Assembly (NCBI GenBank): GCA_964016885.1
Contig: OZ024761.1
Location: 10,850,001-10,914,000 of the forward strand
DNA from: Eledone cirrhosa
Lineage: Eukaryota
DNA length: 64,000 nucleotides
Direction of reading: 5' to 3'
Shown here: in pieces, positions 25,801 through 40,800 of the stretch
Position numbering within the stretch: the stretch's first letter is position 1
Layout: every line of letters begins with the position of its first letter
The notes under the pieces: generated by a model
Database searches by the model: none
What the model saw: only the letters and a program-made list of their open reading frames with translations
Told to the model about the DNA's origin: nothing
Made by a program: the position numbers and the translations under genes

Positions 25801-28800
25801 TAATGTATATAAAGTATATAAAGTATATAAAGTATATAAAGTATATCAATTATATAATGTATATAAATTATATAATGTATATAAAGTATATAAAGTATAT
25901 AAAGTATATAATGTATATAAAGTATATAAAGTATATAAAGTATATAAAGTATATAATGTATATAAAGTATATAAAGTATATAAAGTATATAATGTATATA
26001 AAGTATATAATGTATATAAAGTATATAATGTATATAAAGTATATAATGTATATAAAGTATATAAAGTATATAATGTATATAAAGTATATAATGTATATAA
26101 AGTATATAAAGTATATAATGTATATAAAGTATATAATTGTTTCTACTTTAGGCACAAGGCCAGCAATTACCCAGTGCATTACTGGTACTTTATTTTATCG
26201 ACCCTGTAAGGATAAAAGGCAAAGTCAACCTCGGCGGGATTTGAACTCAGATCGTAAAGTATATAATGTATATAAAGTATATAATGTATATAAAGTATAT
26301 AATGTATATAAAGTATATAATGTATATAAAGTATATAAAGTATATAAAGTATATAAAGTATATAAAGTATATAATGTATATAAAGTATATAATGTATATA
26401 ATGTATATAAAATATATAATGTATATAATGTATATAATGTATATAAAGTATATAAAGTATATAAAGTATATAAAGTATATAATGTATATAATGTATATAA
26501 AGTATATAATGTATATAAAGTATATAATGTATATAAAGTATATAATGTATATAAAGTATATAAAGTATATAAAGTATATAAAGTATATAATGTATATAAA
26601 GTATATAAAGTATATAATGTATATAAAGTATATAAAGTATATAAAGTAGATAAAGTATATAAAGTATATAATGTATATAAATTATATAATGTATATAAAG
26701 TATATAAAGTATATAAAGTATATAATGTATATAAAGTATATAATGTATATAAAGTATATAAAGTATATAATGTATATAAAGTATATAATGTATATAAAGT
26801 ATATAAAGTATATAATGTATATAAAGTATATAATATATATAAAGTATATAAAGTATATAATGTATATAAAGTATATAATGTATATAAAGTATTACCAGTT
26901 TCGATGTATTATTAAAATGCATCTTATCAAATGTTGGTATTGAAATAAAAAATGAAAAGAATTAAAGGGAGTTAAAAACTAAAAATTAAAGATTTAAAAT
27001 TAAAATCAAATGTTGGAGTAAGTTTTTTTCCCATCTTTCTTGTTCAATATATATATATATATATATATATATATATATATATATAATATATATATATATA
27101 TATATATATATATATATAAATATATATATATATATATTTATATATATATATAAATATATATATATATATATTTATATATATATATATATATTTATATATA
27201 TATATATATATATATATAAATATATATATATATATATTTATATATATATATATATATATATATATAAATATATATATATTTATATATATATATTTATATA
27301 TATATATATATATATATAAATATATATATATTTATATATAAAAGTAATATATATGAGTAATATATATGTTGAAACAGATACCAACATATCTGTATTTATA
27401 TTGCAAAAGAAAGTTAGCCAGACTGAAGAATATTAATTATTATACCACAGTTCGAGCTAATTCCATTGTAAAAGAATTCCTTACACTTAATATATTTATA
27501 TATATATATTTATATATATATATATATATATATAAATATATATATATAAATATATATATATATATTTATATATATATATATATATATATATATATATATA
27601 TATATATATATATATATATATATATAAATATATATATATATATATAAATATATATATATTTATATATATATATATAAATATATATATATTTATATATATA
27701 TATATATATATAAATATATATATATATATAAATATATATATATTTATATATATATATATAAATATATATATATATATATATTTATATATATATATATATA
27801 TATATATATATATATATATATATATATATATATATATAAATATATATATATTTATATATATATATATATATATATATATAAATATATATAAATATATATA
27901 TATATATATATATATATAAATATATATAAATATATATATAAATATATATATATATATATATATATATATATATATATATATATATATATATATATATATA
28001 TATATATATAATATATATATATATATATATATATATATATATATAAATATATATATATATATATAAATATAAATATATATATATATATTTATATATATAT
28101 ATATATATATATATATATATATATATATATATATATATATATATATATGGGTCAGAAGAGTCGTCTGCAATGAGAGACAAGTCTGGCCAAGAGTGGCGAT
28201 GCCATATCTTGCTTGGACGGGACCGTAAATTTGGGTTTTTACAGTTGGATGCCCTTCCTAACATCAACCACATTTACAGTGTAGGACATAATATATATAT
28301 ATATATATATATATATATGTGTATGTGTCTCTATGTGAAGAGACAGGTGTATGTGGTCAAAGCTAGTTCGACGGTGTAAGTCAAATTAGTTAATAGGTGT
28401 GGTATAACATACCTGTATAGATAACTTGTGTACTGGTTCAGAAATGTGGTCAAAACTAGTTCGACGGTGCTTGTCAAACTCATGGTCAGTATCTTGTCTG
28501 AAAGGTAACGAGAAATAGCACAGGTATGAAATAAGAACATGTCAATTGTTATAATCCTTGTAAATCTTAGAATTAATTTATCTTTGATCAACCATAATAC
28601 ACCACATGTGTTTCCATATTTATATATATATCTTTGCTGTAACTATTTAAAATACACTCACACACAATGTATTTCCTATCTCTGTTACGTTCCCTACAAT
28701 GAGAATTACAATTTACAACCACAAGGTCCTGGTTTCTAACCCTACATTTGTCCCTGTAAATAGTTATTTCTCCAAAGTTACTCAAGGTCCTGGTTTCTAA

Positions 28801-37800: not shown

Positions 37801-40800
37801 ATGCACTGACACACACACAGACGACACACACATACACACAACACACAAACACAAACACGCAAGCACACATGTACTAACACACACACACGCACACACACAC
37901 ATGCACATACCCACACACACACTGACACACACAGCCATGAGACTAACCAATATCGACACAAGACACTAATCAATCAATATATATATCAATATATTTATAA
38001 ATCTATCAGTAAAATACCTTTCAACGAGATTAGGTCTTCTGTAAATAAAAATTGATTTAATCATAATTTTAGAAAGAGAAAATTAATCAAAGTTCATTAA
38101 TTACATTAATTAATGGAAGCATAATAATTGTTTCTACTTTTGGCACATGGCCAGCAATTATTCCAGTGTATTACTGGTACTTTATTTTATCGACCCTGTA
38201 AGGATGAAAGGCAAAGTTAACCTCGACGGAATTAGAACTCAAACCGTAAAGAGCCGTAACTCTATGCTGCAAAGCATGGTGTCCGACCCTCTACCGATAC
38301 TGCCAATCCATATATTAATAATAATTATTATTTCTTTATTGGCCACAAGGGCCTACATATAGAGGACAGTACAATAGACAGGGACAGGGGGCTGACATAT
38401 AGGGGACAATACAATAGACAGGGACAGGGGGCTGACATATAGGGGACAATACAATAGACAGGGACAGGGGGCTGACATATAGGGGACAATACAATAGACA
38501 GGGACAGGGGGCTGACATATAGGGGACAATACAATAGACAGGGACAGGGGGCATTACATATATAACGTGCAAGAAAATATAAATAACAATAAAAATAGCA
38601 AACAAGAGTTCCCCAATAGGGGGGGGGGGTAACAACCCAACACTCTGAGGCCCCCGGGAAGGGTACTTTCCTTCTCCTCAAATTAGCCAGACTACAGGCA
38701 TATGCTCAGAGCCGGTCTGTTATGGTAATGAAAGGGTTAATGACATAGGTAGTGTCTTTCATTAGAAATATGTTAATGAAAGGGTTAATGACATAGACAG
38801 TGTCTTTCATTAGAAATATGTTAATGAAAGGGTTAATGACATAGACAGTGTCTTTCATTAGAAATAGGGTAATGAAAGGGTTAATGACATAGGTAGTGTC
38901 TTTCATTAGAAATATGTTAATGAAAGGGTTAATGACGTAGACAGTGTCTTTCATTAGAAATATGGTAATGAAAGGGTTAATGACATAGGTAGTGTCTTTC
39001 ATTAGAAATATGTTAATGAAAGGGTTAATGACGTAGACAGTGTCTTTCATTAGAAATATGGTAATGAAAGGGTTAATGACATAGACAGTGTCTTTCATTA
39101 GAAATATGGTAATGAAAGGGTTAATGACATAGACAGTGTCTTTCATTAGAAATATGGTAATGAAAGGGTTAATGACATAGACAGTGTCTTTCATTAGAAA
39201 TATGGTAATGAAACGGTTAATGACATAGGTAGTGTCTTTCATTAGAAATATGTTAATGAAAGGGTTAATGACATAGACAGTGTCTTTCATTTGAAATATG
39301 GTAATGAAAGGGTTAATGACATTTACAGAGTCAAATAGGCGATATAAGGGGAGATAACTAAGAGAGGCAAATTGTCAAGGGAGGTAACTCTGAAAGAAAG
39401 TCTAGCTGGGTTGATTTTAAGGGGAGTTAACTACCAGAGGTTAGTTGTAAAGGGAGTTAACTATAAGAGAGATTAATTTTTTAGGGAAGTTTTGTAGAGG
39501 AGTGGATAATACTTACTTGTTGTCCTTCAGTACTCTCCTCCAACTTTCATACAAGTCAGGATCAGCACGTTTTATATCTTTCAACCTTCCCTGGCATTTT
39601 ATTTGATGACGATTCACTACAATAATCTGGACAGAGAAACATTACATTATATTACTACTACCATAGGTGTGTGTGTGTGTGTCTGTCTGTCTGTCTGTCA
39701 AACTGAGATCAGTTTGACAATCGCCACCGATGAATGCAATGCGAGAAAGTTAACCAGGAATCTTTAAAATTCTTCCCACCAAAGTTAACAAAGAACTTAC
39801 TAGATCAACCAACTCATAATATAATATAAAATTAAATCAAATTATTTAGAACTACAAGTGAAGTCATTCTTTTCCCTTTTTTTTTCAAATATATATATAT
39901 ATATATATATATATATATATACATATATATATATATATGTGTGTATATATATATATATATATATATATATATATATATATATATATATATATATATATAT
40001 ATACACAGTGAATGTTCGCTCATCCGGACGGTCAAAACCAAACAGTTAGAAAAAGATCCGGTTAAGTGAATTTTAAAATCCCATTGTTAGATAATTGTTT
40101 CTACTCTTGGCACAAGGCCAGCAAATTACCCAGTGTATTACTGGTACTTTATTTTATCGAGCCCCCCCCCCCCCCCCCCGTAAGGATGAAAGGCAAAGTT
40201 AACCTCGACGGTATTTGAGATCAGGCCATAAAGGGCCGTAACTCTTTGCTGCGAAGCATGGCATCCGACCCTCCACCGATATTGCCAAGGCTTGTGGTTT
40301 CTAATGTTTTGGCTTATTTTAGTCAAAATAAAAGAAAAATGCTAAGTAAAGAAAATTTATTAGAATAACAAAAGAACAGCTAGAATTTATAAGAAAATTA
40401 ATTAAACAAACTTAAGAATAACTAAAAACTTGGTAAAACTGAATTGAGTGAAACCGTAAAAAGTTAGAAATAGCCGTCAGGTAAATCGAATTTCAGAAAA
40501 GCGACGCCTGGGCTGGTTTGGGCACGCTTTGAGACTTCCTCCGGAGAGACTGGCGAACCAAGTACTTAAATGGAACCCACAGAGAAGCAGACGGAGAGGG
40601 CGCCCCAAAATGAACTGGCGCCAAACAGTTGAGAGGGACCTGCGAGCGACAGACAACGGCGGGACACTGTGCAACTGGCTGCTGACCGCGGTGGAACACT
40701 ATGATTGCCTCATGCGTCGCAAGACGCGGGAGCTTCTGAGTCCGAGTCTGATATCCGGATAAGCAAAGATGCACTGTATATATCTATATTGGCACTGACC

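Follow-up and report, generated by a model that had tools for sequence, protein, structure and literature searches.

The stretch of DNA analysed here (the window) comprises 64,000 nucleotides (nt) of Eledone cirrhosa (assembly GCA_964016885.1, contig OZ024761.1, positions 10,850,001 to 10,914,000 of the forward strand). It is AT-rich (GC content 0.345) and repeat-laden, and it holds the middle of one minus-strand gene of the SUR/ABCC9 family, whose transmembrane domain 0 (TMD0) and second nucleotide-binding domain (NBD2) fall outside the window. Where the linker between NBD1 and TMD2 begins, the gene carries three short exons, here called microexons A, B and C, which may set the number of kinase sites on this linker by alternative splicing. 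The gene and the exons that make up the linker are as follows (all coordinates are those of the window).

1773..58983 (-): SUR/ABCC9-family gene, 27 coding exons in the window, running from TMD1 to late TMD2 (tblastn with orthologues, open model)
39517..39626 (-): last NBD1 exon, with a phase-2 end carrying AA
38018..38038 (-): microexon A, 21 nt, phase 2-2, without Ser or Thr; has an Octopus isoform counterpart
35879..35902 (-): microexon B, 24 nt, phase 2-2, with a self-contained RRSSL(P) site
33455..33475 (-): microexon C, 21 nt, phase 2-2, giving KRSSL when alone and RRSSL behind A or B
28413..28497 (-): linker exon, constitutive, carrying RRTSF
24500..24587 (-): linker exon, constitutive, carrying an RQVS motif and the start of an acidic ED-like stretch (tblastn, model)
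21506..21553 (-): acidic cassette exon, 48 nt (16 residues), in the ED-like stretch; optional in Octopus isoforms
15518..15765 (-): end of the acidic stretch and start of TMD2 (tblastn, AlphaFold model)

With A, B and C included, the 27-exon model is 3522 nt long, corresponds to 1174 codons without any stop, and shares 86.4% identity with residues 296-1464 of Octopus sinensis isoform X1. Sequencing runs were compared with 39325-39885: contigs from runs X1-X3 match 39325-39660 without differences, and they cross the exon-intron border, i.e., they represent DNA, and those from run X4 leave the exon uncovered. A search with a single exon returned three proteins, namely an O. sinensis ABCC9-like protein (82%), a protein of Argonauta hians (68%) and a Logan protein (57%), and Pfam searches with individual exons gave only a weak ABC_membrane match, in one of the eight gene-derived open reading frames (ORFs). 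When the O. sinensis orthologue was compared with solved structures, SUR chains filled all 11 top rows, with the alignment beginning at residue 29, and the best sequence match was SUR2B (E value 3.8e-277, vs 4e-166 for MRP1). SUR and ATP-sensitive potassium (KATP) channel entries also occupy ranks 1-12 in a fold search with the structural model. In a FastTree phylogeny of 31 proteins (1433 columns; without a Nautilus, annelid or brachiopod row), the coleoids are sister to gastropods plus bivalves with a support of 1.0, and the SUR clade, in which they group with molluscan, arthropod and vertebrate SURs, has a support of 0.957; the coleoid stem is long (0.83) and the crown branches are short (0.04-0.13). 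These results indicate that the coleoid gene product descends from SURs and, with TMD0 taken into account, lies nearer to SUR1/SUR2 than to the MRPs or CFTR.

Microexons A, B and C and their use in relatives

A sequence-only reading of the window had described three short exons in this region, and its coordinates, AG/GT flanks, lengths (21, 24 and 21 nt), 2-2 phases and peptides for A, B and C all hold in the window, as does the RRTSF motif that it placed in the next exon (28413-28497). Between 39516 and 28498 there are 308 frame-keeping, stop-free AG..GT intervals of 3-51 nt. Ranked by a splice matrix trained on the 22 other exons of the gene, B, A and C take ranks 1, 2 and 3 among these candidates, and their donors are weaker than those of the 22 exons (6.2, 6.2 and 1.1 for A, B and C, vs 6.8-13.5). 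Two additional microexons proposed by the same reading fared differently. The candidate at 37006-37026 (-) has decent splice signals (rank 5 of 308) but shares only 9 of 57 matches with A, B and C and is left unsupported, and that at 36664-36705 (-) was rejected (rank 143 of 308, 13 of 57 matches). Both adjoin tandem repeats (36710-36990 and 37026-37152), with 37006-37026 lying between the two, and no counterpart of either was found in the 14 full-length Octopus isoforms read.

The three microexons resemble each other. Anchored at the 3′-end and with the final AG dropped, the pairwise identities are 12/19, 10/19 and 11/19; their sum of 33/57 was reached in none of 200,000 shuffles, and the next best non-overlapping candidate lies far lower. 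No other AG/GT-flanked copy of A, B or C was present among the best matches in the window. It is very likely that A, B and C are copies of one ancestral exon generated by tandem duplication. The exon duplication proposed earlier is supported by the mutual similarity of the exons at the DNA level; nothing comparable was seen in the flanking introns, where visual comparison of the 45 nt before and the 20 nt after each exon showed only a donor, gtattt, common to A and B. The Asn codon AAT of A aligns with the Ser codon AGT of B and C, which would fit A as a decayed copy. The acceptor of B (35897-35905, -) is a tandem CAG GAG GAG, and splicing at its second AG would shorten the exon to the 21 nt of A and C, which suggests that the extra Arg of B came from an acceptor shift. 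We further noticed a 26-nt copy (28351-28376, -; 25/26 identical) of the RRTSF-coding part of exon 28413-28497, which sits some 36 nt downstream of the donor in the intron that follows and shows no sign of being an exon.

The PKA consensus is RRx[ST] followed by a hydrophobic residue. One such motif is always provided by the constitutive exon, as RRTS[FL] is found in 24 of 24 coleoid linkers read (31 proteins were examined, of which 24 have a readable linker). The total is one when no microexon, A or C is included (the fixed RRTSF only), two for B, AB or AC, and three for BC or ABC. An arginine had been claimed at each splice join; this is true after A, B and C, but not after exon 39517-39626, which ends in phase 2 with AA, so the join before the first included microexon is AA|A or AA|G and encodes Lys. 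Since its -3 Arg comes from the splice join, C needs a preceding A or B to form a full site. The claim that the microexons encode PKA motifs likewise applies to two of the three, B and C, since A of the window species contains neither Ser nor Thr. By its sequence, A is a site-less module that completes the site of a neighbour, i.e., a spacer and Arg donor for RRSSL in C. The number of sites is tunable by splicing from one to three, as predicted, with the refinement that C requires A or B upstream. The combinations also differ in RxxSxP, a 14-3-3-type motif present only with B, and in RxR, an endoplasmic reticulum (ER)-retention-type motif present only with both A and B.

The combinatorial inclusion predicted for the microexons is supported by relatives, for which the patterns are database annotations and assemblies rather than counted reads. 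Among 14 full-length Octopus records (three species pooled, from 15 of the 21 cluster members), we found ABC four times, AB once, BC once, AC twice, A once, B twice, C once and none twice, and thus all eight possible patterns; O. sinensis alone shows six patterns among the isoforms seen, which do not include X6 and X9. The B peptides of O. sinensis and O. bimaculoides are identical to that of the window. The C peptide is identical in three Octopus species and in P0151 and has one change in the P0003 cluster, and the A peptide of Octopus differs from that of the window at two of six residues. Conservation in other cephalopods, which had been suggested as a check, is also evident: A- and C-like segments (A′ and C′) are optional in two cuttlefish/squid-like clusters. 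The nine full-length records of the P0003 cluster (Logan, including an Acanthosepion pharaonis member) comprise five with A′ alone, one with C′, one with A′C′, one with none and one odd variant; since five of nine carry A′ alone, inclusion is not rare in this cluster. The sister cluster P0032 has A′C′ once and none twice, with a C identical to the octopus peptide. Altogether four inclusion patterns are seen in the Logan assemblies, which were made independently of genomes. One Logan record, P0030, has IQTWLKR in place of C′, which could stem from an error of assembly or from an exon like A or C read in a shifted frame. Across groups, C varies at -1 (S/C) but keeps its Arg (-2), Ser (0) and Leu (+1), as the PKA consensus predicts. 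The presence of A and C in both Octopus and cuttlefish-like proteins indicates that the two are older than the octopod-decapod split, roughly 270 million years ago.

The catalytic ATP site

The sequence-only reading missed a second feature of this gene, a degenerate catalytic ATP site, which is possibly more surprising than the microexons. In SUR1, site 2 is formed by LSGGQ of NBD1 together with the Walker A Lys and the Walker B Asp-Glu of NBD2 (PMC5940251, in part). The exons of the window that lead up to and encode NBD1 are listed below.

50336..50410 (-): TMD1-NBD1 linker cassette exon, 75 nt (25 residues); optional in Octopus isoforms (orthologue isoforms, tblastn)
45850..46297 (-): TMD1-NBD1 linker exon and start of NBD1; A-loop Trp replaced by Thr
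41442..41522 (-): NBD1 signature exon, LTEGQ instead of LSGGQ (part of catalytic site 2)
40800..40937 (-): NBD1 exon with Walker B and the H-loop, in which Pro stands in place of His

Six site-2 positions are replaced in all six coleoid proteins compared (P0001, P0002, P0003, P0004, P0013 and P0032, which together count as one evolutionary event): S>T and G>E in the signature (LTEGQ), K>R in Walker A, Q>H in the Q-loop, and D>E and E>Q in Walker B (DE>EQ). The two changes in NBD1 were read in the window and the four in NBD2 only in orthologues. The A-loop Trp and H-loop His of NBD1 are also replaced in all six proteins, and site 1 retains its Walker A Lys, Q-loop and Walker B DD. All six positions are unaltered in 28 other molluscan proteins (27 readable at the signature), 50 arthropod proteins (45-50 readable) and 19 invertebrate deuterostome proteins; one or two site-2 changes occur in two of 64 fish ABCC8 records. 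An exhaustive search yielded 150 representatives, of which 145 are unchanged at these positions; one or two changes occur in four, and all six in the coleoid representative alone.

The coleoid SUR is thus without the intact consensus site 2 expected of a nucleotide-sensing KATP-type SUR, and established ABC chemistry predicts that it has lost ATP hydrolysis. Residual nucleotide binding is possible, because SUR activation does not strictly need hydrolysis (PMC5940251, in part). A second, canonical coleoid SUR paralogue was not seen among the best 120 of 2185 matches, among 97 matches or among 150 representatives; this is a weak negative, as the 97-match search also missed O. sinensis P0001 and the set of 150 carries no names.

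Elsewhere in the window, a long element resembling a long interspersed nuclear element (LINE) lies at 8144-11265 (-), with matches to reverse transcriptase and a PHD finger. An upstream ORF in this element is endonuclease-like by eye, and related fragments are present at 12849-13553 and 52456-53376.

Proposed linker regulation and rival explanations

The insertion point of the microexons is equivalent to residue 912 of SUR2, where the N1-T2 linker of SUR2B starts, with its R-helix at 922-938 and its ED domain at 947-961 (PMC13648608, in part). The coleoid linker is about 100-125 residues long. Residues 851-1805 of the O. sinensis protein were modelled with AlphaFold (mean predicted local distance difference test score (pLDDT) 82). 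In this model, the last helix of NBD1 (model residues 225-249) continues through A with falling confidence, and B, including its serines, and most of C lie in coil with pLDDT below 50. Model linker residues 250-346 are likewise below 50, a value that predicts, but does not prove, disorder. We therefore have a low-confidence prediction that A extends the last helix of NBD1, and a prediction that the NBD1-TMD2 linker of the coleoid SUR is disordered.

These observations could be explained as follows. Situated where the linker begins and included in every combination in the Octopus relatives, A, B and C would set the RRxS/T sites at one to three: B adds a complete site, C does so only when A or B precedes it, and A adds no acceptor. 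The protein is predicted to have given up ATP hydrolysis, and the number of sites would tune the strength of its control by PKA or a related basophilic kinase. Phosphorylation may displace the linker from the interface of the NBDs or from the core cleft, as in CFTR, Ycf1 and MRP2; alternatively, it may change binding to a partner. By analogy with these three proteins, we have moderate confidence that the dose of basophilic kinase sites on a mobile linker is what the microexons determine. It is reasonably likely that the linker is phosphorylated, and both the kinase and the effect named here are putative.

Other molluscan SURs bear on this reading, as a 5-residue difference between isoforms creates RRxS further along the NBD1-TMD2 linker in Aplysia (X1/X3, P0297/P0295) and Biomphalaria (X1/X2, P0302/P0299), and a 7-residue difference creates it in the TMD1-NBD1 linker in Mya (X1/X2, P0187/P0049) and Dreissena (X1/X3, P0312/P0314). 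Three other segments of 4-6 residues (Aplysia, Mytilus and Dreissena) add no site, nor do optional segments of 13, 16 and 25 residues. Counting the coleoid cluster as one, a site was gained in three of six short events (4-8 residues), vs 4.0% for random segments (p about 0.001); the baseline consisted of 4-8 residue deletions in 26 linkers, and one-residue differences and longer segments were left out of the count. The RRxS motif looks like the selected unit, because snails and clams toggle it in the same gene with other short segments. In oyster orthologues (P0188/P0056, P0316/P0222 and P0321/P0320), we also observed that the segment which opens one TMD1 helix comes in two alternative forms, as mutually exclusive exons would produce.

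It is rather unlikely that the microexons are instead modules of length or charge, whose 7-residue steps extend the last helix of NBD1 or shift basic residues relative to the acidic ED-like stretch, with RRxS being incidental. Such a role would account for A, which lacks Ser and Thr yet is kept in octopods and cuttlefish-like proteins and lies within the modelled helix, and the helix of SUR2B extends about 20 residues past 912 when the NBDs are dimerised (PMC13648608, in part). However, the modelled helix is interrupted by B and C, the R-x-S-L of C is conserved, and other molluscs gain RRxS through 5- and 7-residue segments elsewhere. The sites may also be real and serve trafficking or scaffolding, such that splicing sets surface delivery through RxxSxP of B and RxR of A plus B rather than conformation. 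The restriction of these two motifs to particular combinations is consistent with this, and scaffolding may be the main role left to a protein whose catalytic site does not work; yet B is seen only in Octopus, C is the most conserved microexon and has neither motif, and motifs this short easily arise in basic disordered sequence, so we regard this explanation as improbable. Least probable would be near-neutral insertions tolerated in a disordered loop, or isoforms annotated from rare reads. The weak donors of A, B and C and the repeat-rich intron DNA, which holds a recent copy of the RRTSF-coding stretch, are in its favor, but the B and C peptides are identical across Octopus species, C is identical even in P0151, four patterns occur in genome-independent Logan assemblies, and A′ alone is carried by the majority of full-length records in the P0003 cluster.

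Several points weigh against the dose of kinase sites as the function of the microexons or against parts of this reading. A has no acceptor in the window and is conserved nonetheless, and therefore fits a structural role. The vertebrate SUR2B linker is described as not phospho-gated in the part of the source consulted (PMC13648608). The similarity among A, B and C could partly reflect selection for one motif rather than descent, and the convergence test across molluscs is post hoc, with six events drawn from annotation differences. Snails and clams toggle RRxS with site 2 intact, therefore toggling is independent of ATPase loss, and this weighs against the idea that losing the site and gaining the exons are causally connected. 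NBD2 lies beyond the window, so the NBD2 losses rest on the orthologues, and the inclusion of A, B and C in E. cirrhosa itself is extrapolated from relatives. No B-like segment was seen outside Octopus in the linkers read, and the single Argonauta record has none of A, B and C.

Known systems and meaning

Like vertebrate SUR2 and SUR1, the coleoid protein has the linker in the same position, an acidic stretch before TMD2 and the Walker B DD of NBD1; it differs in a longer linker with dibasic Ser sites added by microexons, and in the replaced site-2 residues, NBD1 A-loop Trp and H-loop His. The R-domain-like label given to this region in the sequence-only reading stands as a positional analogy and is not supported as homology. 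With the R domain of CFTR, the linker shares a disordered NBD1-TMD2 segment with several PKA-type sites, but the former has 10 consensus sites in about 200 residues (PMC11573500, in part), whereas the coleoid linker has one to three dibasic sites, set by splicing, in about 100-125 residues and thus does not reach the CFTR-type size or site number. Ten of 11 CFTR matches start at query residue 1182 or later, and 6d3r extends to 1101. Papers on the R-domains of Ycf1 and MRP2 reportedly describe phospho-regulated NBD1-TMD2 linkers in ABCC proteins. The shared principle appears to be family-wide in ABCC; unlike the coleoid SUR, Ycf1 and MRP2 are active transporters with a working consensus site, and the excerpted source describes no splice-based change of site number (PMC10912322). 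Other molluscan SURs (Aplysia, Biomphalaria, Mya and Dreissena) share optional 5-7 residue RRxS segments in a disordered linker, but there the segments are single and at different positions, and site 2 is intact.

The microexons are also comparable to the neural microexons that depend on SRRM4 and its enhancer of microexons (eMIC) domain in being short, frame-keeping and optional, with weak donors, and the eMIC signature is a UGC near the 3′ splice site with a long AG-free zone (PMC8797185, in part). No eMIC-type TGC is present in the last 25 nt of the three acceptors, and their AG-free zones are 93, 24 and 37 nt.

The isoforms are present in RefSeq and ENA as automatic annotations. A literature search found no description of A, B and C or of a degenerate cephalopod SUR, with supplements, which could list the gene, outside its scope. 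In the excerpts seen, one source treats ABC linkers generally, without microexons (PMC13257379), and the one mention with a bearing on the gene is a table entry for an ABCC9-annotated transcript, possibly of this gene, in the white body of O. maya (PMC6522055). Phospho-regulated linkers are thus already known from CFTR, Ycf1 and MRP2, and what appears to be new is a version built from microexons on a probably ATPase-dead SUR.

A broader proposal, which we regard as doubtful, is that the coleoid SUR is a rewired metabolic sensor, in which the catalytic site has been lost and a kinase-driven regulator has arisen whose cyclic AMP sensitivity is dialled by an AND-logic splice code of three exons. 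If so, cell types would get graded control over a partner channel. The eight natural linker isoforms, whose only differences are how many kinase sites they have and how these are spaced, offer a way into two questions: how ABCC linkers translate multisite phosphorylation into an output, and how duplicated microexons could build an R-domain-like segment. Site 2 is degenerate in every coleoid protein seen, with short crown branches thereafter, and provides a natural test of a SUR without hydrolysis or MgADP sensing. The partner of invertebrate SURs is unsettled in the literature seen in part (PMC11577616), and the degenerate site also bears on what invertebrate SURs regulate.

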